Made by a program: the position numbers and the translations under genes | Notes under the pieces: generated by a model | Database searches by the model: none | Told to the model about the DNA's origin: nothing | What the model saw: only the letters and a program-made list of their open reading frames with translations | Source of the DNA: an uncultured virus (IMG/VR IMGVR_UViG_3300046007_001549) | Taxonomy: Duplodnaviria > Heunggongvirae > Uroviricota > Caudoviricetes | DNA: 64,000 nucleotides | Strand: one strand, 5' to 3' | IMG/VR virus record: IMGVR_UViG_3300046007_001549 | Shown here: piece after piece, positions 8,752 through 35,563 of the stretch | Layout: each line of letters opens with the position of its first letter | How positions within the stretch are numbered: the first letter of the stretch is position 1

Positions 8752-9407
8752 ATCCTGTCTCTCTGACGATGGGTGGCTTGTCTTTAGTTCAGGGTGTATT
8801 TAGTGCCCTTGGTGCATCAAAGCAAGCTGAAGCTCAATATCAGGCCCAACTAATTCAGCAGCGTAATGAAAACTTTAGAAACAAATGGCAAACAGAAGCA
8901 CAGAACCGAAACCAACTTAGGCAGTACCAAGCCGCACTTGAGCGTAATGTTCAGGTTCAGCAAGCTGCAAACAAGGAACGAGCCATTGCGGAAGTCTACC
9001 TAGACCGCAACTTCCAAAACCAAAAGGGAACCCTTAGCAAGCAAACCAATCTAGCCAATGCTGCATTCCTTACCGCTATGCAAGGTAAGGGTATTGGTGG
9101 CGATAGTGGCACAGCCAGAGCCTTATTCCGACAGAACATGGAAGCTCTAGGCAAGAACATGCTAGCCATGAAGACTACCTATCGTAATGCCTATCGGGAT
9201 ATTGAAACACAGCAGGCTGGTCGCTTGGCTCAGAGAGCCGACACCATGTTCCCCAATCAGGTAACTTACCTACCATCAACTGGTGGTATTGTAAATTCTG
9301 CTAGCTCCGCTCTAACAACTGGACTCATTAGTGCAGGCATCCAAGGCTTTGCTGCTGGTTATGACGCACAACTAAAGTATGGTGGCGGCGATGGAGGTAA
9401 CAAATGA
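8742..9407 (+). CDS. Internal virion protein (gp14-like)
   Basis: MAIDPVS hydrophobic N-terminus, Q/A-rich coil, GIGGDS motif. Confidence 0.7.
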   Translation: MAIDPVSLTMGGLSLVQGVFSALGASKQAEAQYQAQLIQQRNENFRNKWQTEAQNRNQLRQYQAALERNVQVQQAANKERAIAEVYLDRNFQNQKGTLSKQTNLANAAFLTAMQGKGIGGDSGTARALFRQNMEALGKNMLAMKTTYRNAYRDIETQQAGRLAQRADTMFPNQVTYLPSTGGIVNSASSALTTGLISAGIQGFAAGYDAQLKYGGGDGGNK

Positions 9408-10447
9408 CTACAAAAGATCTCTATCAATCCTTAGCCCAAATCGCTAAGCAAGCTGTATCAATTACCCCAATCGAAGAAGACCCAAATAAACAGATCATTA
9501 ACAAAGAGATCGACCAAATTAAAAAAGTTACTGACTTGGCTTCCAAGATGTATCCTAATAACAAGGATAACCAGTTTGGTTACTTTAAGAAGACTGTCGA
9601 TATCGCTGGTATGACTCCAGAAGCTAAGAACTTTTATTGGAATCAGTACCAGAAGATTAATCCTAGGGGTCTAGAGGGCACTAAGCAAGACTACATTAAC
9701 ATAACCTCCAGAGAACTAAACCAGATTTCTGGTGTGTCTCGTAAAGAGTTCTATCTACGCAACCAACTAGCTAATGCCCCAGAATGGGTTAAGCCTGTGC
9801 TGGAACCAGAGCTAGCCAAGCTATCTACCGTTGTTGCCAATGCCAACTATAGCAAGGCAACCAAGGTATACGAAGAAGATGTCAAGGTTAGATCCAATGT
9901 ATTCCTAGCCAACGCTCAACTTGATCCCGATGTTTCTATTGAGGATCATACTGCCGACATGGTTCGGCTTGAGCAAATGAATCTTCTTGATATTGGTGCT
10001 GTTATAAACGGTAGAGTTGGGGTCTATAAGAATGGCAAAGAGTTTGTACCAAGCTTTGCAATCAAAGGTAGGAATGAAATCCTATCGGATGATCCTTATG
10101 GAGCGCCCTCTGCTGAAGAACAACTACGAATTAAAGAAACAACAACACCTTACTTTAAGCAGGCTGTTGAACGAAAGATCTATACCAACCAAAGCACAAT
10201 CAACCGGGAAGAGCAGATGTCCGCTAAGATGGCGAGTCGTATGCTTGAGGACGGTAAGTTTACGCTTGATCGTTGGGGCGAAGCTTTCTCAATGAATCCT
10301 GAATCAAACCCACAAGAAGAAATTCTCCGTGGCTTAAAGGGGGAAATCTCTGCAAAGAGAGTTAAGACTTATCAAGACCTTGCTCAGACTATCTACACAG
10401 CAATGAGCAAATACGGCAATATGCTTGGAGAAAATAACAATGGCTGA
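9404..10447 (+). CDS. Hypothetical protein, probable internal virion protein
   Basis: 347-aa ORF translationally coupled within the ejection-protein block. Confidence 0.55.
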   Translation: MTTKDLYQSLAQIAKQAVSITPIEEDPNKQIINKEIDQIKKVTDLASKMYPNNKDNQFGYFKKTVDIAGMTPEAKNFYWNQYQKINPRGLEGTKQDYINITSRELNQISGVSRKEFYLRNQLANAPEWVKPVLEPELAKLSTVVANANYSKATKVYEEDVKVRSNVFLANAQLDPDVSIEDHTADMVRLEQMNLLDIGAVINGRVGVYKNGKEFVPSFAIKGRNEILSDDPYGAPSAEEQLRIKETTTPYFKQAVERKIYTNQSTINREEQMSAKMASRMLEDGKFTLDRWGEAFSMNPESNPQEEILRGLKGEISAKRVKTYQDLAQTIYTAMSKYGNMLGENNNG

Positions 10448-13400
10448 AATAGTACCGCTACAGCAGACAGTATTTGAGCAGGGTCCACAGGCTACCTTTG
10501 TACCTCCAGCTCAGCAAGCACAGGTATATCAAGAGGGTCAGGTTGTATTTGGTCAGCCCATCTACACCGTTGATCCCGGCATTGCATGGGAGGCGTTAGG
10601 AGCTGAAGCTGCAAAGACAGCAAGTACTTTGTTTGAAAACACTTTGAATTATCTGATTGAATCTAAAGGCAATGCTGTTAAAGAATTAAAAGATAAGTAT
10701 GAAAGTGAACTAAACACTTTTTATAATGAGCAAAGCACAGCACTATATTCTAAAGATCCAGCTAAGCGGATTACTCCACAGCAAAGCATTGATAATGTAA
10801 ACGCTAAAATTATTGAACTTCGTGATAAGTTTTTATCTGAATCAGGCACAGCACTAGAAACAAATGAATACTTTGCAGACGAGTTTGATATTAAAAAATA
10901 TGGTATGGCTTATCAACGACTAGCTCTAACTGCACGAAACTCTCTGAGAGATTTCGATACACGATCTAGTCGTTTGCTTTATGATACACAGCGAGTAGTA
11001 AACGGACTTGAAAAAGAAAAGTCTGAGTTTGGTTCATGGAAGAATTCTGATATTGGAAAGCGACCAGATAAACTAGAGCCTCTTGCTCTTACTGGTAACG
11101 CTCCACTCCCAACCAAAGATGGGTATCCAATTATTGGTTTCCAAGAAACTGAAGATGGAACTCCAACTGTTCCTTACACAGCAATGATTAACGGGGTGGA
11201 AACTCCTGTTGTTCAGAAAGATGAAAACAACAATTGGGTTTTAATTCCCGAAGCTCTTGAAGCCCTTCCTGAAAAACAATTAGAACTTGCTTTCAGGATT
11301 GATCAAGAAGCTTATGGTGACAGCTCTGCCGTACTTAGTGCTGGTGGTCAACCAACAACATTCTTTGAAGGGGCACTTAAGCAAGCAGCAAAGAATCCAC
11401 AGCTTAATGCAGGATTAACTGCTTATACAGCTATTGCATTAGCTCAGTTACCAGATCATACAGCAACACAAACTATCAGTGGATTGAGCGGTCTAGAAGA
11501 AGATGATAGGTTAATGCTTTCAATGCTACGGCAACACTTTATTAATGGTGGTCGTAAAGACAGCATGCCAAGCATTACTGGATTAAACAGAGATGTGCTA
11601 AGAACAAACGCAACAGCAATTCAAAAGCTTCGTTTAAGTCCTACAATTGCTGGTGTAGCTACAAGGCCAACTGAAGTTGCTAAGTATAAAGAGCTAACAA
11701 CAACCCTAACAGAAATTGCTCAGCAATACGAACTTCCTGTTGAAGACAATGCACTTAGTCTTACTAAAGGTCCATATGATTTAACTGATACAGACGGATT
11801 AACTGCATCTGCTTTACTACAAGACAACCCTGTATTGGTTTATGCTTTAGCTCGGGTTTCTACAATGATGGATTCAAATCCATCTTTATACGCAAACGAC
11901 CCAGAGTTAAAAGAAGAAACAATGAAGCGTATCTTTAAAGAAGTAATCACTACCGAAGGATACTTTGTAACTCAAAACCCAAACACAGGAAGTCCTCTTA
12001 TTGTTTACTCTCGCGGATTGGGTCATGTTAATAAAGCAAGACAACTTATTAAAGAAGATCCAATGATGCTAAAGGATCTTCCAGAACTACAAGAGGCTGC
12101 TAAAGAAGATCCAAATATTGTTGATGGTGTTATTGCTAATTCATATCTATATGAAACTCAGTGGGCAACTAACAGAAACGCAGCAGATGAAAAACAAATT
12201 GCTTTTGATACTGCCAGAAGAATCAACCCACAAGTTGATTTAGAAGTGTTTGAAGCAATCTACGATGCTGCAGTAACTGTAAGCCAAGATCCAAAAACAA
12301 AAGCTAGAGTGGCAGCTAGAACACAAGCTCCTTTAACCTTTGGTCAAATCTTAAGAATGGCTGTTGCTTCTTCTCCTGCTGCAATGGAACAAACAGGTAA
12401 AGTTGTAATCGAAGGTAGAGAGAACACGGTTGCCGAATTTAAAGACAGATTAGCAGCTGCTAAACAAGTATGGGATGATACTGATTTTAATGATGGCTCT
12501 GATAACGCTGTCTTAGAGTTTGATACTAATCCAGCTATGTTTAGTTTTATGGGCGCACCTACTGGTGGTATTCCATTAAAGATTAGACAGCTAAAAGGAA
12601 AGTCTGGTAAAGACTACTTTCCGTTTATTGTTGGTGACTCACAAAGAAACTTCGGAGCATTCTCTCCAAAGCTAGATGACAACACTCCAATAATGTTTAT
12701 CAAAGCTGAAACAGATACCCAAGGAATGGATCAGTATAGACTCAATCTTAGTATTAGTAAATACTTAGATGCTAAACGAGGTAAGCCAGCAATTAGATAT
12801 GTAGATTATTCTACAGAACGACCTCCAAATGTTGGTCCCTTGTCAGCCCAAGATGTAATCAATGTGACAAATGAACGATATCTACCACTTGACTTTAATC
12901 CTGTAGGTAATGCTGATGCTCCATTAACTACCTTTGAAGCAGCTGATAATTTTAGAATCATCAATAGTCAAGCTATTCAGGAAGCTGTTAAAGCAGATCC
13001 TTCATTAAAAGATGTTGTTCCGTTGCTATACGAAGTTGCTAGAGATAAAGACGGAACAGTAATGTATGAAGAAAACAAAACAGTTTTCTCACGAACAAAT
13101 CTACGAAAGCTATTTGATAAGGCTGTAAAGCAAGGCGCTAAAACCAATAGAGATTATGTTGGTTATATCTTTAGAGCTATGCGAAATTATCAGCAAAACG
13201 ATCAGCAAGATGCCGGAAGAAAAGTATCTTTAGCTGAAGCTACTAACTCCCCCTTTACTGCTTTCTTAGGACAAGAAGGAAAAGAAAAAGGAGTTGTGCT
13301 GTATGAGCCTAGCACTGTAAGATTCTTTGATGGTGTCGATGCTTATGTCAGTACTGGTTACAATTTATTTGCTAAAGGTAATCAGTACTATATGTTTAAG

Positions 13401-13655
13401 CCTGATGAATTGAGTATTGAGCAAGCTAGAAGCAGTGGTTATAAGTTAATCATAGATCATGCCAATAAAGATCAACAAGCTCCTACAGATTTTACTGTAT
13501 TAAAAACTAAAAAAGATAGGATTGAGCAAGCTAAATCTATGCTGTTTAGTTCTAGAACTAGTCCACTAACTGAACGAGAAAAGTTTAGACAGCAGCTCTT
13601 CTTACAGATTACTCAACCAAGAGAACAAGTACCCGCTATAATGTTACAACAATAA
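10440..13655 (+). CDS. Large internal virion protein (gp15-like by position)
   Basis: ~1071 aa; start at ATG 10440 after GGAG; lies between gp14-like and giant protein genes. Confidence 0.6.
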   Translation: MAEIVPLQQTVFEQGPQATFVPPAQQAQVYQEGQVVFGQPIYTVDPGIAWEALGAEAAKTASTLFENTLNYLIESKGNAVKELKDKYESELNTFYNEQSTALYSKDPAKRITPQQSIDNVNAKIIELRDKFLSESGTALETNEYFADEFDIKKYGMAYQRLALTARNSLRDFDTRSSRLLYDTQRVVNGLEKEKSEFGSWKNSDIGKRPDKLEPLALTGNAPLPTKDGYPIIGFQETEDGTPTVPYTAMINGVETPVVQKDENNNWVLIPEALEALPEKQLELAFRIDQEAYGDSSAVLSAGGQPTTFFEGALKQAAKNPQLNAGLTAYTAIALAQLPDHTATQTISGLSGLEEDDRLMLSMLRQHFINGGRKDSMPSITGLNRDVLRTNATAIQKLRLSPTIAGVATRPTEVAKYKELTTTLTEIAQQYELPVEDNALSLTKGPYDLTDTDGLTASALLQDNPVLVYALARVSTMMDSNPSLYANDPELKEETMKRIFKEVITTEGYFVTQNPNTGSPLIVYSRGLGHVNKARQLIKEDPMMLKDLPELQEAAKEDPNIVDGVIANSYLYETQWATNRNAADEKQIAFDTARRINPQVDLEVFEAIYDAAVTVSQDPKTKARVAARTQAPLTFGQILRMAVASSPAAMEQTGKVVIEGRENTVAEFKDRLAAAKQVWDDTDFNDGSDNAVLEFDTNPAMFSFMGAPTGGIPLKIRQLKGKSGKDYFPFIVGDSQRNFGAFSPKLDDNTPIMFIKAETDTQGMDQYRLNLSISKYLDAKRGKPAIRYVDYSTERPPNVGPLSAQDVINVTNERYLPLDFNPVGNADAPLTTFEAADNFRIINSQAIQEAVKADPSLKDVVPLLYEVARDKDGTVMYEENKTVFSRTNLRKLFDKAVKQGAKTNRDYVGYIFRAMRNYQQNDQQDAGRKVSLAEATNSPFTAFLGQEGKEKGVVLYEPSTVRFFDGVDAYVSTGYNLFAKGNQYYMFKPDELSIEQARSSGYKLIIDHANKDQQAPTDFTVLKTKKDRIEQAKSMLFSSRTSPLTEREKFRQQLFLQITQPREQVPAIMLQQ

Positions 13656-13693
13656 TCCTGTTTATGGCGTGAGAACCCCCAGAAAGGATATGA

Positions 13694-16600
13694 ATGTTTA
13701 ATTACACACAAGGTTTTCCTTTAGTTGAAGACCGACCTAGTGCTGGCCTGTTAAGTCTTAAGGCTTACACACCAGCACAGGTGTTATCTGCATATGATGG
13801 AGATAACTTAGAATTCTTAGATAGCTCAAAAATATCTGATCCACTATATTGGACCAGAGGTGAAACTAAGAAAACAGAAACCTATAATGAATGGTTTGCT
13901 ATTCAGCAAGCTCTTGGAACTTTAGAAGGAAACCTTACTGGTATTTCCGATCAGTACTTAGGTATTGCTAATGAACCACTAAAGGGTGCTGCATTAAGAC
14001 AGTTAGTAGGCAAAGCTCCTCTTACTCCGTGGAGATGGAGCGATAGTGAACTTACAGAAGAAGCCTTAGCACAAGACCAAAAAGAACTAAATACACTATT
14101 AGAGGCAGAGCAAGGAATAGATATTGCTTCTATTCCTGTCGATCAACTAACAGAAAACCAAAACCTAATTAGAAAACTTGCAAGTAAGTTTGCTTATGTT
14201 GAAGCAGAAAAGAAAGCAAAAGATAAGTTAGGATTTAACTGGATTGATCTTTTAGATGCTCAAGAAATTTTTGGTATCTCTTTATCCGACAGAGAACTAG
14301 CGGGTGACACTAAAGATATTGAAGAAAGACTATCAAGGTTTGATCCAAACTTTGATTCTAAGTCTTGGTTTGCTTCTAAATTTTCTGATGAGATTGTAAC
14401 TAGAGGTTTGTTGGAAAACGGAATCACAGCTGACTTAATTGCTGATGCTCCTAATGAAGACGCAGCTTTTATGCGAATTATGTCTCGTCTTTCTATTACA
14501 GATCTTCAGCGACGAGCTGCTTCATATACTCCAACAACACTAGATAAAGGTCGGCTATTCCGAGATACAATTATAACTGGTGTTATCAATAGCCCCGATA
14601 CAATTCCATCGGTTGTTGCTGAATTAGGATTAGCTGGTATAGCTTCTGTATTTGGAACGCCTGCTGCTGGTGTTGCTACCCTAGGTGCAACTAGTGCAGT
14701 AACAAGTGCATTAGGCGGAACATCCGTATTCATGCGTCTTAAAAAAGCATATGATGCTATCGGAGCAGCCAGTAAAACAATGAAGGTAGCTGGCTATGCT
14801 GCAGAAACCTTGTATAAGATGCCTATTGGTATCATGCCAAGTTATGTAAAGAACTTTGGTTTAATCCGAGGAACTGCTGCATCCTTTACTTTTGGTGCTG
14901 TTCAAGGTGGTATGGCTGAATACGCAAGACAGCAAAGAGAAATTGCTTTCGGTGCGTCTACCTTGTATGCTACACCAAACGCAATGACTGATTACAATTT
15001 TTCTCTTGTTGCTAGAAGCGCATTAGAAAGTGGTGCTGCATTTGGTGCTGTGTTTGGACTTGGCGGTGGTTTACTAAGAAGTGGCGTTGGCGCTCTTAAA
15101 AATAGAATGAGTGGTGTTCTAATTGATCCAGTAACTGGAGTTAGAAACATTGCTGATCAACGCTTTACTTTTGAAAGCACCCCATTAGGAAACACAATTG
15201 ACAACATTCGTAACTTTGTTGGTAAAGAAGAACGAGCTTTAATTGATGCTCCTGTTCCTGATCAGCTTGCAGCTGAATCAATTCTAAACAAAACAGAAGT
15301 AACAACTGATACTTTAGTTTCTAGGACAGAAGCAAGAGTAGACCGGGTTGAAACAAGAGAGGCTGCTAGATCTCCTGATGCTGCAAGAGCAACACCAGAA
15401 GATGCTGGTACACGACGATACGAAGGTGAAACCATTCCTGAGTATGTTGCCCGTGTAGCACCAAACCGTGCTATTAGAAACATTTATGAAATCATGTCTG
15501 AGGTTGCTAGACGAACCCCAACCGAAGGTAGCTTGCGTCTAATTGAATCCTCAGAACAGTTTGATAACATGTCTATTCAAGACCAGATGCGTGTGTTGTT
15601 CAATTCCAAGAAGGTATTGGAAGACGCAAAGAAAGCAGAAACAGACTCAGTAGGTCTACCTAAAGAGCGAGAGCGTCTTTATGACGAACTAGAAAAAAGC
15701 CGAAAGTCTTGGTTTGCTCGTTTAAAAAAGAAACTGCCAAAGGCTGCATTCAAAGCTTTAAAAGAAGAACTAGAAGAAAACAAAAAGGCTTCTGGCAAGC
15801 GACTGCCTGATCTACTTAAAGAAGCTCGTAACACAGGTAAGACAGCCGCAGAGCGCAAGGCTGCTTCAGATGAGCTAGCTGCCAGACTGCTTGAAACAGC
15901 GTCTGCTATGGCAGCTGCGCCTGACCGTGAGGCTGCTATTAGATCAACGGTTCCTCCTGAAGTATTAGATAGCCTTGAAGCAGCAGTTGTTGAACAGCAC
16001 CTTACTGGTACTATTAGTGATGAAACTGCCGATAGTATTATAAAGAATATTGCTGGTGAAGAAGTTGAAACTAAACTTTCACCGCTCAACCGTGTTGCTA
16101 GAGCCGCTAAGAATGCAATTACTGTTGCAAAGATTAGCCCAGACAGAGTAAAGAAAATCAAAGCTATTATCAAAGATCCAGATAGTTTCGTATCTGTTAT
16201 TGATGGCGATAAAGACAATGCTTTAAGATTCTTTGACTTTGTAAATGAACTTGTCTTAAATGACATGATTTCAGAGATAGATAGAAACTTACTTCTAGCT
16301 TCTACTGTTCATCTTAACTTTAGTTCTAAAGCTTTTAATATTCAGTTTGCTGTTGAAAGTGTATTAGAGAACGGCAAGATTCAGCCAGATATTGTTGGAA
16401 TCTTCAGAAGAAGAAACAACTCTATTGTAATGAATTCCGATTTCACAGGAACAACAGCTAGCATTAAGCGCCGAAGAGCTAAGACACTATTGCATGAATT
16501 AGGCCATGCTTACTTTGCACACGAAGCAAGCGGAGCTAATTACTTAGATGCTCTAAGACTATACAACAAAACAATTCTTACAAGTGGCGTTGAGCTAATG

Positions 16601-19600
16601 AGAGTTCGACCAGAGACTACTGATCCATTATTGGATTCAGCTTTCTTAGGTCAGTACCACATGCAAAACGCAGAAGAAATGTTTGTTCAGACATTCTCAC
16701 AAATTCTGTTTACCGAAGCAGAAGCAGCCATTAACACATTCAGTCCTCCTCAAGTATCTAGAGCAAGGAATGTTTTAGACAAACTGGCAACTAATATAAC
16801 ACTAGCTGCTGCAATGTTTAATAAGTCTGATTACTATAACGCGGCTAAAGATATTATTGATTCAATTACAGAGGTTGATAGCAAGCTAAAAGATAGGGTT
16901 TCAATGCCAACCTTGGCTAGAACTTATTCTAAGCTTTATCCAATGTTTGATACTGTAACTGATGCTGCTGAATATAATAAAAAGATTGATGCTGAATTTC
17001 CTAATCAGGATATGAAGCCATATCATCTCAATCAAGCTGAAGTAGATCTATTCGCAAAAACCAAAGGAGATCCTAGCTTCATTATTGCAATGACAATTAT
17101 GAAAGCAGATCGAAGATCCTTTATTGATGCAAACGGAAACTTTACTAAGAGCCTTGTTGATCTAGTTAAAACCTATAATGATTATAAGACAACACAGCTT
17201 ACTTCAATGCAGATCAAAATTGCATTCTTAGTTGGCTCATTAGATTATAAAAAGATTGAAGCTTTGGATAAGTTTGATAGACTAGACTTTATTAAGGATG
17301 AGCTATTCTCAGTTTATTCTCGTACAATCTTTAAAGGCAAGTCTAAGCGAACATTGGTTCCAGCAACTTATGAAGACTTAGATGCTTTAAAGAATCTAGA
17401 TACAATGGATTACTTAGACCCAACAGGCAACAGTGTTCCATATGCTGTCGGATTCTTTGGAACAAGTGGTGAGACTTTAATCAATGCTATTGCTTCTACA
17501 CAACCAAAAGGTAAAGCTTTGGTTGCCGATGCTCTATCTGCTGATGATGTTGCTAAGCTTGTTGAAGCAATGAGAACAGACGCAGCTCTTACAACCAATC
17601 TAATTGATCGTCTAAGAATTTATTTAGATAACATTGGACTGCCAGAACTAGCTAATGTTGTAACTGAAGTCAACCATCTTGCTTACATTGAAAGACTCAA
17701 GACTGAGGGTATGCTAGATGTTGAGCCATCAACTCCTATCTGGCCTAACAAAGAAGTTGCTAATACTTCACTAGCTTTAATGTTAAAAGAAAAGCTATCA
17801 GTAGAGCAAATCAAAGTTATTCTAAAAGCCAACCTTTCATCTTCAACCTATAGTTATATTACCAATAAGTACTCTACTCCTAAGAAACTTCTTGGAGCAG
17901 TAAGTAAACTAATAGACGAAGATGGTCTTGTGTTTAATCAAGACTCTCAACGATGGGGTATTAAGTTAACATCAGCTAAACCTAAAGTTACTGTTGAAGC
18001 TCAAGCTCAAGCTATAAGCTTGGAGACTACGGTTTTAACAAAAGATAACTTAATGAAGGTTATTGCTCGTATTGGAGAAAAGTATTCAAGAGGTACAGAT
18101 ACTGATGAATACTTTACTGAAGCCCTTGCTAGCATGATGATGCCAAGAGAGCAAGCTAAAGAACTTGGTGGTGTCGCTGGAAACTTAGAACTAATTCTAT
18201 CTAAGATTGAAAATGGTAGTCTAGCAACAGTTAAAGACTTTGTAAACTATATCCATGCTACTGCTAATAATCTCAGAAAGAATCAGCAAAAGAAAGCTCC
18301 AGAAGTAAAAGCAACTGCTGCTGATAGGATTGTAACTACTAAGAAAGATATACGGTTTACTATTCTGAGTGAAGCTTTAGCATTCAACACAGCAACCCAA
18401 GGTAGACTGCTTACTCCACAAGAGATTGAACTCATCAGAGTATTCAATGAATCAAGCAGCATGGCTGAAGCTGGAGCTAAGCTAAAGCGTTCAGCACGAA
18501 CTGCTGGAAACTATAGAGCAAAGCTAATTGCAAAGATTACTGATGTCTTTGAGCAAGCATCAATCAGACTTGATAGTGATCGAACTGCTATTACAGCAGC
18601 TCTAAACAAATACTTTGATACTGTAGCTAGTGTTGTTGATAAAGCAAAACCAGATACAGAAAAGAAAGTAACTAGCAAAGTAACTGAAGCTAAGTCTAAG
18701 CCTGAAAAGAGTCCTGTTGAAGCTGGAGCAAGAATGGCACAGACCGCTGCGCTTGCTGAAAAGCTGAGGAACAAGAACCCAGATCCAGTTCCTGTACCTG
18801 TGCCTGCAAACACAGAAGCTGTTCTTTACAAAGTAACTGATGAAGTTACTGGCAACGAACCAGAAAAGGTTCTACGACCATCAGAACAAGCTGATGCTAT
18901 CATTCATGGTTCACAGACAGCGGCTAAAGAAGCTGTAGCGTTTACGCCAAAGAAGCCATTAGGAATGGACTTTGGTACAAGCCAAGAACTAGCGAGTCAA
19001 CCTGAAAAACTTGCAGGCGTATTAAGGTCTGCAAGTAGATTGGGTTTTGATGCTCTTGTGTTTAAGGATGGTTCTGTAATTCCAATCAACATTGAAGAAC
19101 TTCCTGTGGTTGGAAAGACTGTTATTAAAAAAGAACCAGATGCCCCTGCTGAGGTTGAGATTACTACAGTAGATAAGACTCCTGTATTAAATGTTATCTC
19201 TAAACCAAGACAGCCAGCACAACCTAAAGCACGAAAAGAATCTTTCCCTGTTAAGGTGGTAAAGAAAAAAGTTTTACAAACAAAACCCAAATCAAAGGGT
19301 GGAAGTAAAACAAAATTAAGTGATCTTAAAAAAGAATTGCTTACTTCGTTTAAAACACGAAAAGAAAGAATAGATCACTTAGTTAAACTTGGTTATGCAA
19401 AAGTTTTTAACACTGATTCAGGTAATACTCCTTTTGTTCTACTAGAAGACCGATTGACTGTGGTGATTAATGTAAAAGGAAAAGATATTCCTTTTTATAT
19501 TAGCACTGGTCTTGGCGGTAAAAAAGATGTTGCTGCTGGACAATGGTATCCATTCTTTGGTATGACAGAAGATAATTCTTGGTTTATCAAACTTACTGGT

Positions 19601-22600
19601 AAAGAGATTAATGATGTTTATGGTTCTCCTGAATTAAAAGCAGTTAAAGAACTATTAGACGAATCCTTTGGTAATCTTGATGATGAAATGCAACAGCTAC
19701 CAATGGGTAATACCCTAGAAGAAATGAGATCTATTAGATCTGAGTTTTATAAAGAAACTGGTCTTGATGGTGTATTAGCACAAAACAAAAAAGCTGTTGA
19801 TTCTCTTTCTACTCTACTAAAAACATTAAATACTTCTGGAATTAAAAAAGGCGATCCTTATAATAAAGTAAAAGCTTTTATTGATTCTGTTGTAAAAGAA
19901 ATTAGTGAAGGTAAAGAATTAGAAGCACCTTCAGTAACACCAAGTACTCCACGAATTCCAACTCCTCCAAAAAGAGAAGTACCTGTCGAACCAATCGAAA
20001 GCGATTTGGTAAAGACTCCAGAAACTGATGTAGTAGAACGCAAGACTAACGATGATCCTGCTTTGCTACGACAGGCTGGAATGGATTCTAACTTCTTAAA
20101 GACATTCATCAAAAAGTATTGGGAATCAAAGATTGAAGCCGACTCAGGCACAACCATGACCCCAATGTTTAAGAATATGTGGGCACACTTTGTCAATGTA
20201 AATCAATACATTGCTGACGCAAACAAGCGTGTTCTTGGTGATGATATTATGGATAAGTTCTGGAAGGCGGTTGACCGTCTTCGCACTGAGTCTCTTCTTC
20301 GTAAAGTAACTGAAGGACCAGCAGGAAAGAAGCCACTAACATATCGACAGATGTTAGAAAAGGCAGCAGAAGAAATTAAAGTAGATGGTAAGTCTGACTT
20401 TGTAATTCCTCTGTTACCTGAAGAAATTAAGTTTGTAAAAGTAAATGCAGAAGGTGACTATAGGTTATCAGCCAGAAGCAAAAAAGCAAAAGACATTATT
20501 GATGCTGCTGGTGAAGACCCTAAATTACCCGGACCTCCTAGAGCTGATGTAATTATCAGAGAAGGAGAGGGACAACCAGAGTTACCAATTAAGATTGAAG
20601 AAGAACCACCAACACCTAAAGAAAAAATCATTGATAGTAAAATCAATCAATCTGAAGCTGGTGCTTCTAGGTTGCTTAGATTTAATAATATGGTGGGAGC
20701 TATCTTTGGTGGAAACCAACGAGATAGTAAATCGTGGTGGGAAGACTTAATGAATAAGTCAACCAATGCAACGCAGGGTACATCTGCATTAGGTAAAACT
20801 ATTCGTAGTACTGTAGATCGTTTGTCCTTTGCTTCTAGATTCTTTGATGACACAAGAACACAAACGGCTCACTTAGTTGGTGCTGGTAAAACTGCATTTA
20901 AAACAGCAATGCAGCTACGCTCAGAAGAAGGTCGGTTAATGACTAGAATTTTCCGAGAGTATGCTAGACTCCACAACATTGTTCCTAGAATGACAAATGA
21001 TGTGAGAGCTAAACTTGATATGTATGTATATGAGTCATTATATAAAAATAGACAGCCTAACAAAGCTGATCTTGTTGCACTAGGAGTACCAGTACACCTA
21101 GCTCAAGAAGTAGCTAAACAAGCATCTATGCTTATCAAGTCTTCGCAAATTGCCAATAGAAACATATTAGAACTAGAAACACAGACAGGACGAATGAGTA
21201 TTGTAGATGAAAATGGTAATCCTGTTTCCCATCTAACCTATGCTCCTGTGCAGCTAGACCATGAAGGTCTGGCAAGACTAGATCAAAATTCTAGAGCAGC
21301 ATTGATCAACGCAATGGTAACTGCCCGAACTAATCGGAAGTTAAATGATCCAATGCTTGATATGAATACCATGATTGTTATGGGCTGGCTTGATGTAGCC
21401 TTTGATGACGATGCTAAGACATTAAGTGTCTTTGCTCCTGATCGAACAATTAAGTATTCTGAATCTGCTAACATGTTTAGTAATGATACCCTTCTTAAGT
21501 TATTTGATTCTGAAATCAAAAAGGAAGGTATCACTGGTCGTAAGTCAGAAATTCTGAGGCTGCTCAGAAAGAGCAATCCAGAGAAATTCTTTGTGCTGGA
21601 ATTCGATGATAAGTATGTTATCTACCGTGTTCCAGAAAAAGTTACTGATCTTGCTCCAGCTGATAAAGCTAAGTATGTGGAAGCTATCAAAGGTAATACA
21701 GCAATGTATACTGATAGATGGCGTACCATTCTTAACAACAAGAATCTCATTGAACGGGAAATGAAGGAAATACTTAAGTTTAAGACTAAGCAATATCCTT
21801 ATAATAACCCAGATGATTTCCATTCAGTTGCTAAACAACCTTTCTTTAAGATTGATCCAGAGGGTAAAACTGCGTTGCCCATTCGTGGATTAACTCCAGA
21901 AGAAGTATTAAGTACGCCTGAGACTAGAGCTGTTCTACGAACAAACCTTTCTGAATCTTACTTCTATTTCTTAAAGGGACGCTATTTTGAACTAGCGTTC
22001 CAAAGAGAGCTAGATAGGATGTTTGGTCAGACAGGAATCACAATACTAGATGTATTTGATTATGTAGAAAAAGCTAGTTATGAAGACTTTGATAGGATTG
22101 CAGAACTTGCTGGATGGACTCCAGAACAACTAAGCTATGCTCAAAAGAATTTGGCTGAAGGTATTAAAAGACTAAGAGAGGAATATCAGTTCAATGCTGA
22201 TACCCTACCTTATCTTAATTCTGAAACTGGTTACTTAGCTAGAGTTGGTCTTGCTGCTATTCGGTTCAAGTTCTCTGCGGGTTACGGTATCTCAGCTTTT
22301 GCAGAAACTATGGTTGAGCTAGCAAAGCAAAGCCCAGAGTTATACAGTGTACCTGTAAATGTTATCAAAGCTATGCGTTATGTGTTTGCTGATTATCGGC
22401 TGTCAAAGCGTAAGCTATTAGAGTCAGATATTGGCGATATGACCTTTATTCTAGAAAACTTCCGTACTGACTTTGCTAACCGTTTCATGGGAGAGATTGG
22501 ATACGGAGCATTCCGTTCTGATTCTCGTCTAGGAACCAAAGTAGCAAACAGTGTGTTGAATATCCGAGATGCTCAAGGTATCATAGAAACCTCAACTAGA

Positions 22601-23965
22601 ACATTTGAAGAAGCTGGTAAGTGGATGCAAAGCATTGGTTCGTTGCAATCAATAACCAATGGAACAAGAGCATTGGCTAAACAGCGTATTCAAAGACTGA
22701 TCTGGAAGTATATGAAGAAGGGTAGTATTGAAAAGCTGTTTGATGCTCTACAAGAATCCTTAACAGCTGATGAACTAGCTGCTCTTAAAAAAGCAGCAGC
22801 TTCCGATAGTAAAGCAGAAGCAGCTCTATGGAAAAAGTTTGCTGGCATTGCCAGACACGAAGCTAAGTTTGGTGATCCCAACGAAGCAGCCTTGTTCCTA
22901 AAGTATGGTCTAAGTACCAAGGAACAGATTGCACATTTACGATGGGCAATGGAAAAGGCAGGACATAGAGATGGTAGAATTAATATCTTTAACATTTCAG
23001 ATATCTATGAAGACCTCAGAGATAATCCAGTTGATGGGTTTGATCCTGAAGTTCTAGCATCTGCTATATCAGCATATGCTCATATGGTTGAAGACCTGAT
23101 TATTAAAACTTCTACTTCTGAACTTAAGGGTTTAAATAAGGTTACTTCTTTAGACTCTCGTAGTACTTTTGGAAGAATGTTCTATGCTCTGACTTCTTGG
23201 GTACGCGCTTATCAAGACAATGTAATTCTTGATTTCGGTAGTCGTAGTACAGTCAAGTATATTGCTAGTGGTATTTTCTTATATGCCGCTATGGATACTA
23301 TCATTGGATTGTTTAAGGAATGGTTGGCTGGTAGAGAAACTGAGGATATCATGCAGGAGTTTGAAGACCAGCCCTCTCAGTTTGTATTACGCGGTGTAAG
23401 CCGTATTCCATTCCTTGGTATTGCCAACGGTCTAGTAGAAGCTGGCGCTAGTGCCATCTCTGGTATGACCGGAGGTTCTTATCAGTACTATGGTGTGCCT
23501 TTAATGCCTGCGGGTGCAGGAGCCAGCATGAGTGCTATCCAAGGAATTTATTACAATCTATCTGATATTACTTCAGATGCTATTATGAAACGCGAAGCCA
23601 ACCTTAAGGCATTGTCTGGTCTATTCGGAGCTGAGACTCTGATTAACCGAAGCCCTCTAGCTATTCCCGCAAGAATGCTAGAAACTAACAATGCTTTCCA
23701 AGAGGCCGATGCAATTCAAAAGTATCTAGAGCTTGTACATAGAAACCCATATCCTTACATGGATAAGGCAGCTTCTAGAGTCAAGCCAGTTGGTATTGAG
23801 AATGTAGTCACACCAAGAAACCTAGATCTAGAGAGACAGCAATATCTCAAAGACCTAGAAAAAAGACAGAAACAACAATCTCTTATTCGACCTCCAGCTA
23901 TAGGATTTAACGACCAGAAAGGTGTATCTGGTATCCTAGGTGATATCCTAGGTCAATCCGAATAG
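13694..23965 (+). CDS. Giant multidomain internal virion protein (gp16-like, polyvalent)
   Basis: 3423 aa; Gly/Ala hydrophobic segments at aa ~310-470, HELGH zincin motif, sigma-like region, helical C-terminus. Confidence 0.75.
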   Translation: MFNYTQGFPLVEDRPSAGLLSLKAYTPAQVLSAYDGDNLEFLDSSKISDPLYWTRGETKKTETYNEWFAIQQALGTLEGNLTGISDQYLGIANEPLKGAALRQLVGKAPLTPWRWSDSELTEEALAQDQKELNTLLEAEQGIDIASIPVDQLTENQNLIRKLASKFAYVEAEKKAKDKLGFNWIDLLDAQEIFGISLSDRELAGDTKDIEERLSRFDPNFDSKSWFASKFSDEIVTRGLLENGITADLIADAPNEDAAFMRIMSRLSITDLQRRAASYTPTTLDKGRLFRDTIITGVINSPDTIPSVVAELGLAGIASVFGTPAAGVATLGATSAVTSALGGTSVFMRLKKAYDAIGAASKTMKVAGYAAETLYKMPIGIMPSYVKNFGLIRGTAASFTFGAVQGGMAEYARQQREIAFGASTLYATPNAMTDYNFSLVARSALESGAAFGAVFGLGGGLLRSGVGALKNRMSGVLIDPVTGVRNIADQRFTFESTPLGNTIDNIRNFVGKEERALIDAPVPDQLAAESILNKTEVTTDTLVSRTEARVDRVETREAARSPDAARATPEDAGTRRYEGETIPEYVARVAPNRAIRNIYEIMSEVARRTPTEGSLRLIESSEQFDNMSIQDQMRVLFNSKKVLEDAKKAETDSVGLPKERERLYDELEKSRKSWFARLKKKLPKAAFKALKEELEENKKASGKRLPDLLKEARNTGKTAAERKAASDELAARLLETASAMAAAPDREAAIRSTVPPEVLDSLEAAVVEQHLTGTISDETADSIIKNIAGEEVETKLSPLNRVARAAKNAITVAKISPDRVKKIKAIIKDPDSFVSVIDGDKDNALRFFDFVNELVLNDMISEIDRNLLLASTVHLNFSSKAFNIQFAVESVLENGKIQPDIVGIFRRRNNSIVMNSDFTGTTASIKRRRAKTLLHELGHAYFAHEASGANYLDALRLYNKTILTSGVELMRVRPETTDPLLDSAFLGQYHMQNAEEMFVQTFSQILFTEAEAAINTFSPPQVSRARNVLDKLATNITLAAAMFNKSDYYNAAKDIIDSITEVDSKLKDRVSMPTLARTYSKLYPMFDTVTDAAEYNKKIDAEFPNQDMKPYHLNQAEVDLFAKTKGDPSFIIAMTIMKADRRSFIDANGNFTKSLVDLVKTYNDYKTTQLTSMQIKIAFLVGSLDYKKIEALDKFDRLDFIKDELFSVYSRTIFKGKSKRTLVPATYEDLDALKNLDTMDYLDPTGNSVPYAVGFFGTSGETLINAIASTQPKGKALVADALSADDVAKLVEAMRTDAALTTNLIDRLRIYLDNIGLPELANVVTEVNHLAYIERLKTEGMLDVEPSTPIWPNKEVANTSLALMLKEKLSVEQIKVILKANLSSSTYSYITNKYSTPKKLLGAVSKLIDEDGLVFNQDSQRWGIKLTSAKPKVTVEAQAQAISLETTVLTKDNLMKVIARIGEKYSRGTDTDEYFTEALASMMMPREQAKELGGVAGNLELILSKIENGSLATVKDFVNYIHATANNLRKNQQKKAPEVKATAADRIVTTKKDIRFTILSEALAFNTATQGRLLTPQEIELIRVFNESSSMAEAGAKLKRSARTAGNYRAKLIAKITDVFEQASIRLDSDRTAITAALNKYFDTVASVVDKAKPDTEKKVTSKVTEAKSKPEKSPVEAGARMAQTAALAEKLRNKNPDPVPVPVPANTEAVLYKVTDEVTGNEPEKVLRPSEQADAIIHGSQTAAKEAVAFTPKKPLGMDFGTSQELASQPEKLAGVLRSASRLGFDALVFKDGSVIPINIEELPVVGKTVIKKEPDAPAEVEITTVDKTPVLNVISKPRQPAQPKARKESFPVKVVKKKVLQTKPKSKGGSKTKLSDLKKELLTSFKTRKERIDHLVKLGYAKVFNTDSGNTPFVLLEDRLTVVINVKGKDIPFYISTGLGGKKDVAAGQWYPFFGMTEDNSWFIKLTGKEINDVYGSPELKAVKELLDESFGNLDDEMQQLPMGNTLEEMRSIRSEFYKETGLDGVLAQNKKAVDSLSTLLKTLNTSGIKKGDPYNKVKAFIDSVVKEISEGKELEAPSVTPSTPRIPTPPKREVPVEPIESDLVKTPETDVVERKTNDDPALLRQAGMDSNFLKTFIKKYWESKIEADSGTTMTPMFKNMWAHFVNVNQYIADANKRVLGDDIMDKFWKAVDRLRTESLLRKVTEGPAGKKPLTYRQMLEKAAEEIKVDGKSDFVIPLLPEEIKFVKVNAEGDYRLSARSKKAKDIIDAAGEDPKLPGPPRADVIIREGEGQPELPIKIEEEPPTPKEKIIDSKINQSEAGASRLLRFNNMVGAIFGGNQRDSKSWWEDLMNKSTNATQGTSALGKTIRSTVDRLSFASRFFDDTRTQTAHLVGAGKTAFKTAMQLRSEEGRLMTRIFREYARLHNIVPRMTNDVRAKLDMYVYESLYKNRQPNKADLVALGVPVHLAQEVAKQASMLIKSSQIANRNILELETQTGRMSIVDENGNPVSHLTYAPVQLDHEGLARLDQNSRAALINAMVTARTNRKLNDPMLDMNTMIVMGWLDVAFDDDAKTLSVFAPDRTIKYSESANMFSNDTLLKLFDSEIKKEGITGRKSEILRLLRKSNPEKFFVLEFDDKYVIYRVPEKVTDLAPADKAKYVEAIKGNTAMYTDRWRTILNNKNLIEREMKEILKFKTKQYPYNNPDDFHSVAKQPFFKIDPEGKTALPIRGLTPEEVLSTPETRAVLRTNLSESYFYFLKGRYFELAFQRELDRMFGQTGITILDVFDYVEKASYEDFDRIAELAGWTPEQLSYAQKNLAEGIKRLREEYQFNADTLPYLNSETGYLARVGLAAIRFKFSAGYGISAFAETMVELAKQSPELYSVPVNVIKAMRYVFADYRLSKRKLLESDIGDMTFILENFRTDFANRFMGEIGYGAFRSDSRLGTKVANSVLNIRDAQGIIETSTRTFEEAGKWMQSIGSLQSITNGTRALAKQRIQRLIWKYMKKGSIEKLFDALQESLTADELAALKKAAASDSKAEAALWKKFAGIARHEAKFGDPNEAALFLKYGLSTKEQIAHLRWAMEKAGHRDGRINIFNISDIYEDLRDNPVDGFDPEVLASAISAYAHMVEDLIIKTSTSELKGLNKVTSLDSRSTFGRMFYALTSWVRAYQDNVILDFGSRSTVKYIASGIFLYAAMDTIIGLFKEWLAGRETEDIMQEFEDQPSQFVLRGVSRIPFLGIANGLVEAGASAISGMTGGSYQYYGVPLMPAGAGASMSAIQGIYYNLSDITSDAIMKREANLKALSGLFGAETLINRSPLAIPARMLETNNAFQEADAIQKYLELVHRNPYPYMDKAASRVKPVGIENVVTPRNLDLERQQYLKDLEKRQKQQSLIRPPAIGFNDQKGVSGILGDILGQSE

Positions 23966-24094: not shown

Positions 24095-24840
24095 AGTTAT
24101 TAATACAACAATAATAACAACAAAGGTGATCCCTTGTTGATCATCGCACTCCGGGGTTTCCCCCCGGTTTTAACCCTTGTTTATTTCGCCTACGATGCCC
24201 GGAGACAGCTCCGGTTAGACCGAAGGGGACCAAGGACCATCCCAACCCAAAATCCCCCTATAAGCGGTTTAAAGCTGTTGGCCTCCCCGGTAAGCCTTTT
24301 GGGATTCCCGTAAGTGAAAATCGGCTTAGGGGTCAGAAATTAGCGAAGGGTGGTCCCCCCTAGTCCCCCCGGTCCCGCCCCCCCCCTACCCCCCTACGAG
24401 TTACCGGACTCTCCCCGGCGGTTCCGATAACCCCGGCAGGGCTAGGTCCGATAACCTCGGCCTGCCCCGGAAAGGTTATGGGACGCTGGTTGCCGATGGT
24501 TGCCGTTTCCGGCGCGGGAACCCTTGAAAGTGTCGCCCCCGTGCGGCCTTCGAACCCCGCCGCGTTCCGCCCCCGGTCTGATTGGGGCGGGTTCCTCCCG
24601 CGCATCCTGCGCTGAGGGTAGCACGAACGGTAAGCCCGCCAGCGGCATCCCCCGTAACCAATCGGGGGCGGCCAACGGAGTGAGTGAGGCGAACCCTAGT
24701 AGCGGCTACCGGATTGCAGGCTCTAGTAGGAGGATCGACCCGATGCGCTGCACGGGTTTGGGTGGACGCGGGTTTGCAACAACCGTGCCACACGGGAGCC
24801 TACAATGCGAGTAGGCGGCTAATCCCCGATGATTCTAAAC
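24095..24840. other. Non-coding gap probably containing the physical genome ends
   Basis: Only long gene-free stretch, between last late and first early genes; abrupt GC rise and C-run tract at ~24353-24395. Confidence 0.55.
24775..24790 (-). promoter_or_regulatory. Sigma-54 (-24/-12) consensus site
   Basis: Reverse strand reads TGGCACGGTTGTTGCA, matching TGGCACG-N4-TTGCW. Confidence 0.55.
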
Positions 24841-24960
24841 TTTGGTCCGATATCCCCTGCATTCTTTCGCGGGGGATATCGGCTAGGGTACATTCCCGCG
24901 AATGTGCGCCTAGCCGATAGCCGCGTGGCTTTCGGATTCGCAAGTTTGCCAAAGGTAACA

Positions 24961-25973: not shown

Positions 25974-25979
25974 TTCTCC

Positions 25980-26013
25980 GGTATACCGTAGGGAAACCTA
26001 TGGTATACCTTTC
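25980..26013. repeat. Hairpin direct repeat, copy 1
   Basis: GGTATACCGTAGG-GAAA-CCTATGGTATACC TTTC. Confidence 0.9.
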
Positions 26014-26356: not shown

Positions 26357-26357
26357 C

Positions 26358-26391
26358 GGTATACCGTAGGGAAACTTACGGTATACCTTTC
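26358..26391. repeat. Hairpin direct repeat, copy 2
   Basis: GGTATACCGTAGG-GAAA-CTTACGGTATACC TTTC. Confidence 0.9.
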
Positions 26392-29900: not shown

Positions 29901-29906
29901 TCTATT

Positions 29907-29982
29907 GGAAGGGTGGCTGAAAAGTAGATAGAGCGCATGCCTTATAAGCGTGAATATGTGGGTGCAACTCCCGCCCCTTCCA
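29907..29982 (+). tRNA. tRNA-Ile(UAU), atypical
   Basis: Acceptor GGAAGGG/CCCTTCC-A; anticodon arm CATGC-CTTATAA-GCGTG; T-loop TGCAACT. Confidence 0.8.
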
Positions 29983-29987
29983 TGTTT

Positions 29988-30061
29988 GTCCCTGTAGCTC
30001 AATTGGATAGAGCAATGACCTTCTAAGTCATAGGCTATAGGTTCGATCCCTATCAGGGATG
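29988..30061 (+). tRNA. tRNA-Arg(UCU)
   Basis: GTCCCTG/CAGGGAT; D-arm GCTC-AATTGGATA-GAGC; ATGAC-CTTCTAA-GTCAT; TTCGATC loop. Confidence 0.95.
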
Positions 30062-30189
30062 CTCCTTGTAGACCAACAAATCCCTCATGCGTTATGATAT
30101 ACAGCGCGACTTTCAACCCGCCAAGGTATCATAAAATAAAGGACATGATTAAACTAGGAGTATAAGTTCTGATGGGTCTTATACTTTAC

Positions 30190-30262
30190 GGCATCGTAGT
30201 CCAATGGCAGAGACACTCGACTTAAAATCGACCAAGTGTGGGTTCGAATCCCACCGATGCTA
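30190..30262 (+). tRNA. tRNA-Leu(UAA) with short variable loop
   Basis: GGCATCG/CGATGCT-A; TCGA-CTTAAAA-TCGA; 5-nt variable loop; GTGGG-TTCGAAT-CCCAC. Confidence 0.9.
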
Positions 30263-30264
30263 TT

Positions 30265-32798: not shown

Positions 32799-33138
32799 CA
32801 GAAACCATCCTGAGCCAAGCAGCTATGAGTGTAGTTGCTTTACCTATCAAGACCCTGTTGATACTCTCTGTTCTCATTGTCGTAAGATTAGACTTGATTG
32901 GGAGCAGGGACAGAAGGCGTTAGATGAATTGGCTAAGTTAGATGAAGAGCTTGATCTTATGCATGAACAATTTAGATATCACGAATACCTTCGGTTTGAT
33001 ATCTGGACTAAGGAATTGCATGATGATCAGTATTACGCATCAGTGTTGGATTATGTAAAGAAGAAACTTGAACCTTACAGGAGGAAGCCTAATGCCAAGA
33101 ATGTGGGAACAACTGACTCCGCAGGAACAGGAACATAG
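32788..33138 (+). CDS. Hypothetical protein with CxC..CxxC
   Basis: SD GGAGGTG; putative zinc site. Confidence 0.6.
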   Translation: MYIDRNHPEPSSYECSCFTYQDPVDTLCSHCRKIRLDWEQGQKALDELAKLDEELDLMHEQFRYHEYLRFDIWTKELHDDQYYASVLDYVKKKLEPYRRKPNAKNVGTTDSAGTGT

Positions 33139-35563
33139 AACTAAACTACAAGTAATTGGTGAGGAAGATATGCTTGTGCTTTCTGAACGCAAGTATTGGG
33201 AAACCTATGAAGCCAATCCAGATGAGGGTTTGCCTGAGCAGACTCTAATGGATGCGTGTGTCATTCACCTGACCCCTTACTATCAGCAATGGATTGATAC
33301 CGTATCTCAGAATAGAAAGACTCCTGATTGGGCCTTCCCTTTGTTTGCCGTTGGTGCAGCAAAGATGGCAGACATTACTGTTCGTGCTCTGATTCTTGAG
33401 TGGTTCAATGCCTCGCTCTGGGACAGGAAGTATGAGAATGATTTGTTTCCCCTACCTACAGCGCAGCACATTGCCCATGTTATTTCTGAGATGGTGATTG
33501 AGATCGTTGCATATCAGCAGGCTAAGAAACAATTCAAGCAGGATTGGTTGAAGCAGTCGCACTACCAAAAGAAGTGGACACCTAAGCGTTGTCGCGCCTT
33601 TGCATATAAGGTAGGCACTCTCAATAAGAAGCAGTTTACTAGAAAGCAGCGAGAAGATTTCGGACACCATATGCTACGCATTGCTGAGATGTCTGAGATC
33701 ATCGTGCTTAAGAACATTAGAAAGCATACTGGCAAGCGTTGGTCTGAGCGTGTGGTTGTTTCCTTTACTGATGACATTCTTAAGGAGCTGCATAAGCGAC
33801 ACCGTGATGTGATTGCCAAGGCTGCATTACTGTATCGGCCTATGCTTGTGCCTCCTGTACCACACACCATCGACAATAGTGGTGGTAATCTACTGCCCTA
33901 TGTTCGTAAGCCTGTGGTTCAGAAGTTCAAAGACTTGATGTGGGATGAGAAGATTGTGCAGCGTGGTAGTACGCCATCTCAAATGGTGATTGATGGTCTT
34001 AATGCATTGATGCATACTGAGTGGGCCATCAATACCAAGGTACTTGAAGTGATGGAGAATCTATTCAAGAACAACACAAGAGATGCTAACCTACCAGCGT
34101 ATGAGTTCTCAGCGTTTGATTTTGCCGATCCTTATCCAACTGATGGAACAAAGGAAGAGCAAGCCAAGTGGTGTCAGAAGAAAGAGGAAGCATACTCTTC
34201 ATGGTACAAGGAAGAAAGATCCCGTGGTCGTATGCTTGTCAGGCTTCAGCTTGCCAAGCAACTGGCCGAGTACAAGTTCTTCTACCAGATTTATACATGT
34301 GACTTTCGTGGTCGTGCTAATGCTGCCTGTGATCTGTTGTCTCCACAATCAGGAGACTTTGATCGTGGTCTGATTATGTTTGCGGAGCCACGAAAGCAGA
34401 CACCAACTGGTATGTATTGGTTGAAAGTACATGTTGCCAACCTATTTGACCAAGACAAAGTTCCCTTTGATCAGCGTGTCAAGTGGGTCGAAGACAACAT
34501 GGATATGTTCAAGCGTATCAATGAAGATCCATATGAACACCGCAAGTTATGGGTGTCAGACAAGAAGAAAAAGAATCCTAGTTTCCAGCGTATCGCTGCC
34601 ATCTTTGATCTATGCAGAACCGATGGGCTTACCCAGATTCCTGTACAGATGGATGGATCATGCAATGGTGTGCAGCATTGGGCTGCTCTCATGCGTGACG
34701 AGGTACTGGCAAAGAAGGTTAACCTTGTTAGTGTGACCAAGCCAGAAGATCTGTATCAGTATACTGCTGATATGATGAGCGAGGCTATGGCTTCTATTAA
34801 AGAAGAAGATTCAAACAAAGGGCGGTGGGCTACCCGGTTCATTGAACATTGGGGAGACAAGATTGATCGGTCTGTTTGTAAACGGGCTGTGATGACTGAT
34901 CCCTATGGCGTAACCTTCTACGGTATTCGCAGATACTGTAAGACGGAAGGCCACCTTGATTGGGTAGGTAAGGAAGAGATTGCTGGCGCTGTGGCTGAGC
35001 TTGCTACCTTTATCTTTGATGCCCTGAAGGGTACATTGGTTGAGGCTAACAAAGGTAAGGCATGGCTTAAGCATGTTGCTGACATGGCTAGCGAGACAGG
35101 TAAGAATGTTGAGTGGACTACGCCTTGTGGATTCAAGGTTGTCCACCAGTACTATGAGATTATGACTCGTCGTTCGGTAGCCAAGCTGTTCGATATGAAA
35201 GAGTTACACTTTGGCTCACCCGATAAGGAATCTATTGATGGAACTTCAGTTAATCTGGCTATCTCTCCAAACTACATACACTCGTTGGATGCGAGTCATA
35301 TGTGGTCTACCATCAGACGAATGATTGATTCAGGTATTACACAGTTTAGTATGATCCACGATTCGTATGGTTGTCCTGCTCCCGATGTTAATCTAATGAG
35401 AGCATACACCAACGAAGAGTTTCACAAGATGCATCAATCGAATCTACTTGATGCCATGCGAGATGAAGTCTCAACAAAGTTAGGTATTGATGTACCAGAG
35501 ACACCGCCTACTGGATCGTACAATATCAATCAAGTGCTGGACGCGGAGTACTTCTTCCAATGA
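33092..35563 (+). CDS. T7-type single-subunit RNA polymerase
   Basis: DFRGR, DGSCNGVQH, RSVCKRAVMTDPYG, PNYIHSLDA, IHDSY; SD AGGAGG before ATG 33092. Confidence 0.98.
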   Translation: MPRMWEQLTPQEQEHRTKLQVIGEEDMLVLSERKYWETYEANPDEGLPEQTLMDACVIHLTPYYQQWIDTVSQNRKTPDWAFPLFAVGAAKMADITVRALILEWFNASLWDRKYENDLFPLPTAQHIAHVISEMVIEIVAYQQAKKQFKQDWLKQSHYQKKWTPKRCRAFAYKVGTLNKKQFTRKQREDFGHHMLRIAEMSEIIVLKNIRKHTGKRWSERVVVSFTDDILKELHKRHRDVIAKAALLYRPMLVPPVPHTIDNSGGNLLPYVRKPVVQKFKDLMWDEKIVQRGSTPSQMVIDGLNALMHTEWAINTKVLEVMENLFKNNTRDANLPAYEFSAFDFADPYPTDGTKEEQAKWCQKKEEAYSSWYKEERSRGRMLVRLQLAKQLAEYKFFYQIYTCDFRGRANAACDLLSPQSGDFDRGLIMFAEPRKQTPTGMYWLKVHVANLFDQDKVPFDQRVKWVEDNMDMFKRINEDPYEHRKLWVSDKKKKNPSFQRIAAIFDLCRTDGLTQIPVQMDGSCNGVQHWAALMRDEVLAKKVNLVSVTKPEDLYQYTADMMSEAMASIKEEDSNKGRWATRFIEHWGDKIDRSVCKRAVMTDPYGVTFYGIRRYCKTEGHLDWVGKEEIAGAVAELATFIFDALKGTLVEANKGKAWLKHVADMASETGKNVEWTTPCGFKVVHQYYEIMTRRSVAKLFDMKELHFGSPDKESIDGTSVNLAISPNYIHSLDASHMWSTIRRMIDSGITQFSMIHDSYGCPAPDVNLMRAYTNEEFHKMHQSNLLDAMRDEVSTKLGIDVPETPPTGSYNINQVLDAEYFFQ

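Follow-up and report, generated by a model that had tools for sequence, protein, structure and literature searches.

Phage-encoded sigma factors such as T4 gp55 and SPO1 gp28 are small proteins made after infection. In jumbo phages, free-standing phage sigma factors redirect the host core polymerase (PMC7824862, in the part available). In T7, entry begins with a phase attributed in part to gp16, after which the early region is transcribed and drawn into the cell by the host polymerase (10.1101/2024.04.11.588870, available text), and N4 meets its need for early transcription with an injected polymerase (PMC5512222, available text). For the phage polyvalent proteins (Iyer et al. 2017), a role in jump-starting transcription has been proposed, with processing by the peptidase that they carry; the word 'sigma' is absent from the main text of that article, as far as it is accessible (PMC5512222). 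No description of a sigma factor within a phage ejection protein was found in the literature covered, which takes in few of the subscription journals.

The window analysed here, a stretch of 64,000 nt, covers most of the genome of a T7-like phage. Recognisable families include a single-subunit RNA polymerase, a primase-helicase, a family A DNA polymerase and terminase, together with the structural proteins portal, scaffold, major capsid, tail tube, nozzle and fibres. All genes, domains and the leader that are given with coordinates below lie on the + strand. The phage RNA polymerase gene (33068..35563; PF00940, E=1e-84; phrog_414) is located approximately 8.6 kb downstream of the leader, and its product is at most 28% identical to its counterparts in cultured phages. 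On the 3′ side of the terminase gene are ORFs of 221, 347, 1076 and 3423 codons, none with a telling family match, and beyond the last of these come a terminal non-coding stretch and then GC-rich early genes. As no other internal virion genes were recognised, these four ORFs are likely to encode the ejection proteins. The putative internal virion genes (7060-23965) follow terminase at the right genome end, while those of T7 are found between nozzle and tail fibre. GC3 is 0.25 in the giant gene and 0.74 in the first early gene. Four tRNA genes at 29906-30338 (Ile-TAT, Arg-TCT, Leu-TAA and Lys-TTT) all serve A-ending codons, which together with the GC-rich first genes suggests a high-GC host; a search of GTDB genomes with a profile of the C-terminal part of the giant protein gave no prophage or host link.

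The 3423-aa protein (13694..23965), encoded by the last gene of the virion block, is a putative polyvalent ejection protein in the position of gp16. It resembles the phage polyvalent proteins, in the available description of these (PMC5512222), in being a large multidomain late-gene product encoded near virion genes, with an HExxH peptidase motif and exchangeable ART-PolyVal and other inserts. The HExxH zinc-metallopeptidase motif is at aa 934-938 (16493..16507), upstream of the module described below, and matches phrog_87 metallo-protease with E=0.00099. Kyte-Doolittle analysis identified two hydrophobic segments, at aa 303-322 (14600..14659), possibly a membrane part of the ejection conduit, and at aa 3189-3208 (23258..23317), within the conserved C-terminal region. 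The insertion site for an ART-PolyVal ADP-ribosyltransferase at aa ~1343 (17720..17725), approximately 100 residues before the module, is empty in the window copy and filled in relatives: in six of 13 proteins in one set and two of four full-length proteins in another (P0003, P0005, P0007, P0008, P0010, P0012, L019 and L020). Apart from this insert, P0003 is ~96-99% identical to the window protein. Another insert of ~210 aa (aa 1868-2076; 19295-19921), missing from several relatives, matches phrog_32390, a family of unknown function, with E=2.8e-9, and may be a second exchangeable effector slot.

In gene position, size class and the need for early transcription to complete entry, the giant protein is comparable to T7 gp16 and the N4 virion RNA polymerase gp50. 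Homology with gp16 was not detected (HHalign, 0.7%), nor did searches against PDB sequences and cultured phages give any match. By tblastn, neither the module nor the C-terminal part of the protein had a match in cultured phages. The gene order, the domain content and the lack of any further recognisable gene for an internal virion protein nevertheless suggest a protein that would be carried in the virion and ejected.

The peptides on which the original prediction was based are in frame within the giant ORF, at aa 1449-1619. The fragment that we analysed begins at aa 1441 (residue 1; base 18014). AlphaFold2 modelled it as a helical N-terminal domain, a disordered linker and a C-terminal helical domain, with pLDDT 74 and pTM 0.41 overall; modelled alone, the N-domain did better than within the whole fragment (pLDDT 81.7, pTM 0.74). 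The N-domain is a sigma-2-like helical domain (aa 1449-1534; 18038..18295) with an insertion of ~17 residues after the putative region 2.2 helix. It is followed by a variable, Lys-rich, low-confidence linker (18296..18343) resembling the sigma2-sigma4 linker of ECF sigma factors, in which pLDDT falls below 50 (fragment residues 93-115), length differs among orthologues and identity is 0-40%. The third element is a tetra-helical HTH of the sigma-4/LuxR type (18344..18556; core 18410-18544). The order and spacing of an ECF sigma factor, as had been proposed, are therefore borne out by the arrangement of helical domain, variable disordered linker and HTH.

Sixteen close homologues were found among 6472 candidates and two distant ones among 1.84 billion representatives, and searches with the C-terminal profile added seven and eight further loci, several of them from the same phage. 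The orthologues are ~3200-3600 aa long. A module profile matched at the same place in 15/15 giant ORFs, with E-values from 9e-113 down to 2.7e-4 for L019; the match to L020 (E=0.73) is not significant alone. The module segments are collinear when 14 giant proteins are aligned over their full length. In all relatives found, the module is an internal part of the giant ORF, whereas ECF sigma factors are free-standing proteins of ~150-220 aa, and two sets of candidates of 96-406 aa that share words with it, 7999 and 8000 in number, yielded no free-standing relative at E<=10. The module is under purifying selection: in six pairs of close relatives the sigma-2 part has a dN/dS of 0.05-0.33 and the HTH one of 0-0.23. 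Over the module, members of the near clade are 53-59% identical to the window copy and members of distant clades 15-37%, values that are not above those of the flanks. It is thus a retained, fast-evolving core part of the protein, unlike the ART insert and the insert at aa 1868-2076, which come and go. By eye, the terminal non-coding DNA of L027 (13379-13960) is very similar to that of L016 and L023, with giant proteins only ~35-40% identical, which suggests that alleles of the giant gene are exchanged between phages.

The HTH is the more readily recognised half of the module. HHalign gave 97.4% against a LuxR alignment (26 sequences) and 88.1% against 45 ECF sigma-4 domains, compared with maxima of 20% and 8.5%, respectively, for 72 windows of the giant-protein alignment that served as decoys. 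The predicted region 4 HTH is thus real and well above decoys, but it is nearer to LuxR than to sigma-4. LuxR was preferred in three of four clades, and only L019/L020 favoured sigma-4 (53% vs 38%). PDB sequences matched by the profile were mostly HTHs of the response-regulator type (best E=0.004), and Pfam PF00196 was matched only in relatives, below its cut-off (E=0.05-0.08). The best sequence match of the C-terminal half is accordingly the LuxR/NarL/GerE HTH (PF00196; for example DesR, DosR and RcsB); the module differs from these regulators in lacking a receiver or sensor domain, in having a sigma-2-like bundle in front and in scoring under the Pfam cut-off. An intact HTH of a type shared with sigma-4, C-terminal to a sigma-2-like part across a flexible linker, is retained in all clades, although LuxR scores higher in the clade of the window.

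The candidate target region is the inferred left-end leader (24400..24960), in which four 10-bp boxes (24400-24484) are followed by GC-rich DNA up to the first gene at 24961. With a fixed rule of at least 10/12 matches to the sigma-70 consensus, which recovers T7 A1-A3, promoters were found in none of nine leaders of the clade and in six of eight cultured Autographiviridae. A single 9/12 match in three of the nine clade leaders is at chance level (0.2-0.7 expected). Caulobacter phage Percy likewise has no consensus promoters; a host with unusual sigma factors or other housekeeping promoters could therefore explain the missing sigma-70 promoters. A bipartite promoter motif common to eight leaders was not found, the best gapped word pair (4/8) equalling the null maximum.

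The 10-bp box, just inside the inferred left end, is present in at least two copies (2-4, in either orientation) in all 11 loci checked, some of which are duplicates (L008, L013, L016, L017, L019, L020, L022-L024, L027 and L028). There are four direct copies in L020, and the box is invariant across clades. We considered it as an operator for the HTH or, by its resemblance, as a sigma-28-like -10 element. Both readings are unlikely, because the boxes occur in both orientations and are unchanged where the HTH is only 15-20% identical; a box that stays constant while the HTH varies is probably not the binding site of the module's HTH. It is possibly a host-factor or packaging site, like the short terminal repeats of T7. 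Two other features were seen in the early region. A 14-base motif ending TTCTTTC (24855-24868), which resembles a boxA antitermination site, precedes the first early gene in eight of nine genomes, often within a hairpin. Between early genes lie two hairpins of 35 bp, nearly identical and each with a loop of GGAAAC (25979-26013 and 26357-26391); similar ones occur in relatives, and they are possible RNase III sites or terminators.

The sigma region 2 pattern that had been read from the window sequence was not recovered by sequence comparison, and neither sequences nor profiles of the window's clade matched sigma-2 significantly. The window copy had no match to sigma families in Pfam, PHROG or NCBIfam, and thus none to PF04542 or TIGR02937 above cut-off. 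HHalign of the N-half against 45 gammaproteobacterial ECF sigma-2 domains scored 10.3 (0.3%), below the decoy mean of 11.1 (maximum 20.5, 64 windows), although the best local match was nonetheless in the register of regions 2.3-2.4. The ECF reference consisted of 45 sequences from five genomes, plus RpoE, all gammaproteobacterial, which limits this profile test. In the Atlas feature search, the best cluster for the whole fragment (0.96; 159/256 features common) had Sigma70_r4_2 on 31% of its members, which we treat as a lead only; the N-half alone gave no sigma cluster.

The orthologous segment of L019 did match TIGR02937, with E=4.7e-5 over profile positions 52-165, or ~7e-4 once the ~15 orthologues tried are allowed for. 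Both halves were required: the N-half alone gave E=0.046, as the sole match among 18,950 models, and the C-half alone gave no match. At 23.1 bits, this best orthologue is under the family cut-off of 42.9. L027 gave E=0.045; L020, a close relative of L019, gave no match to TIGR02937, and a search with this model over virus record G001 was also negative (0/1). Unaided, MAFFT aligned both motifs of L019/L020, that of region 2.2 and that of regions 2.3-2.4, with their counterparts in the 45 ECF sequences. The core-binding motif of region 2.2 (acid-x-x-Q-acid) is kept in L019/L020 and degenerate in the window and P0018/P0019 clades. Its Gln, present in 41/45 ECF sequences, is lost in the window clade, where the register is ambiguous; the originally proposed register, EYFTEAL, is plausible but shares this ambiguity. 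The region 2.4 Asn, present in 28/45 ECF sequences, is found in 11/13 phage rows, as read from the MAFFT output, and is absent from P0018/P0019.

The LuxR-like character of the HTH and the degenerate core-binding motif in the window and P0018/P0019 clades would both be expected of a module that derives from a sigma factor and now only binds DNA. Its HTH would grip the entering genome, as a clamp, a ratchet or an activator for the host holoenzyme, with the sigma-2 relic as a structural spacer. A DNA-gripping role would also agree with T7, in which gp16 is credited with at least part of the first phase of entry (10.1101/2024.04.11.588870, available text). We nevertheless regard loss of the sigma function as unlikely: the sigma-2 part is kept under purifying selection, L019/L020 keep the canonical motifs, and the conserved 10-bp boxes, which do not change with the HTH, leave such a protein with no evident target.

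The fold of the N-domain bears on its ancestry. A blind VIA search of 48,161 chains was run with the N-domain, without the HTH. Sigma or sigma-like chains took 13 of its best 50 rows and six of the top nine, with Z 3.4-4.6, rmsd 3.1-4.7 and 64-78 residues aligned. The titles of ten of these name a sigma factor (RpoE, ShbA, SigH, AlgU, SigR, BldN, SigC, SigW, SigB and SigL), one is the sigma-like domain of PhyR at rank 26, and two more we take to be sigma chains. The nearest were Bartonella RpoE (5uxx_C), ShbA (9m84_F), Mycobacterium tuberculosis SigH (5zx2_F) and AlgU (8z6g_B). Z values in this range, none above 4.6, denote a common arrangement by the tool's own scale, and a designed helical protein took first place. 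Foldseek returned nothing at E<=0.001 for the N-domain. With the whole model, several sigma chains align across both domains (122-134 residues), and 13/50 rows of a BFVD Foldseek search were named sigma factors, none of them significant. Of the sigma fold that structure prediction had been expected to reveal, the enrichment among VIA rows is therefore seen, but at low Z and with no significant Foldseek match.

Low Z values, together with the negative outcome of every direct sequence and profile test on the window N-domain, are what a small, generic bundle of helices lying by chance in front of a LuxR-type HTH would give. Such a bundle without sigma ancestry is hard to reconcile with a single fold family taking up this share of the top rows for the N-domain by itself, with the dependence of the L019 match on both halves, or with the unaided alignment of both sigma-2 motifs in L019/L020, and we think it quite improbable. 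Sigma ancestry is favoured because two adjacent domains each point to the sigma family in the right order, and the module is probably a strongly diverged ECF-type sigma factor. As the N-domains of different clades can barely be aligned to one another on their own, the bridge from L019 to the window copy relies on collinearity.

The likeness to ECF (group 4) sigma-70 factors (TIGR02937) consists in a sigma-2-like bundle, a flexible linker and an HTH, in the same order within ~170 residues, with the canonical motifs present in orthologue L019. Unlike ECF sigma factors, the module is embedded in a 3423-aa late protein, scores under the family cut-offs (at best 23 against 42.9 bits) and has an insertion in sigma-2 and LuxR-like spacing in the HTH; no anti-sigma factor or promoter was found. 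By the sequence test the module is outside the ECF family, but it may still work in a sigma-like manner. In complex predictions of the sigma-2-like domain with residues 250-320 of E. coli beta′, the median score was 0.31, against a mark of 0.32 and 0.00 for each of three controls, and we give this outcome no weight in either direction.

The explanation that we prefer, though at slightly less than even chances, is that a diverged ECF-type sigma factor within an ejected polyvalent protein recruits the core polymerase of the host, which would serve both early transcription and the entry of the genome. An ECF-type (group 4) sigma-2 and sigma-4 pair, joined by a flexible linker, would have become fixed as a core domain of the giant ejection protein. 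Carried in the phage head, this protein would be ejected on infection and bring the module to the cytoplasmic side, where it would be either tethered or released by the upstream HExxH protease. Its sigma-2 part would dock on host core RNA polymerase while the HTH touches the entering left-end DNA, and the host polymerase would then start at phage early promoters that are poorly read by host sigma factors. Transcription through the initial ~8.6 kb, as far as the gene for the phage polymerase, would pull the genome in as in T7. The context fits this reading, since the phage polymerase gene is at that distance from the left end and strong sigma-70 promoters are missing; the occurrence of very divergent modules in front of similar terminal DNA argues against it. 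The original prediction of an injected sigma factor or sigma decoy thus gains from the fold enrichment, the distant orthologue L019 and the fitting context, and loses from the degenerate window copy, the LuxR-like HTH and the failure to detect either gp16 homology or a promoter motif for the module.

The decoy half of that prediction fares worse. A module that does not read promoters but binds the core polymerase of the host, or else an anti-sigma factor, in the manner of PhyR mimicry, could displace host sigma factors or park the polymerase at the ejection site. Its sigma-like fold and fast-changing surfaces, the presence of PhyR among the fold matches, the adjoining ART insertion site, which is typical of host-takeover effectors, and the failure to find a promoter motif in eight leaders would all suit such a role. 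A decoy would hardly need the HTH that is intact in every clade, the few copies per virion in T7-like phages (three gp16 in the T7 record) are poorly suited to titration, and the early region still requires host polymerase; we judge it unlikely. The idea of a virion polymerase inside the giant protein was dropped, as no polymerase family matched it.

Compared with gp16 and N4 gp50, the giant protein, having neither detectable gp16 homology nor a polymerase family match, would inject a specificity factor and not an enzyme. Compared with free-standing phage sigma factors, the module would arrive along with the virion, in time to act ahead of all phage gene expression. As a tentative proposal, to which we give somewhat less than even chances, a family of T7-like phages would bring a sigma factor of its own into the cell, built into the ejection conduit as a domain, and would capture host core polymerase at the point of DNA entry for phage-specific early promoters. 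The textbook routes to first transcription and DNA pull-in are strong host promoters, as in T7, or an injected polymerase, as in N4. If the proposal is true, these phages would have a third route, a sigma factor in an ejection protein, by which neither early transcription nor genome pull-in would depend on the host's supply of sigma factors. It would also account for the lack, in this clade, of strong sigma-70 promoters, which most cultured T7-like phages have.
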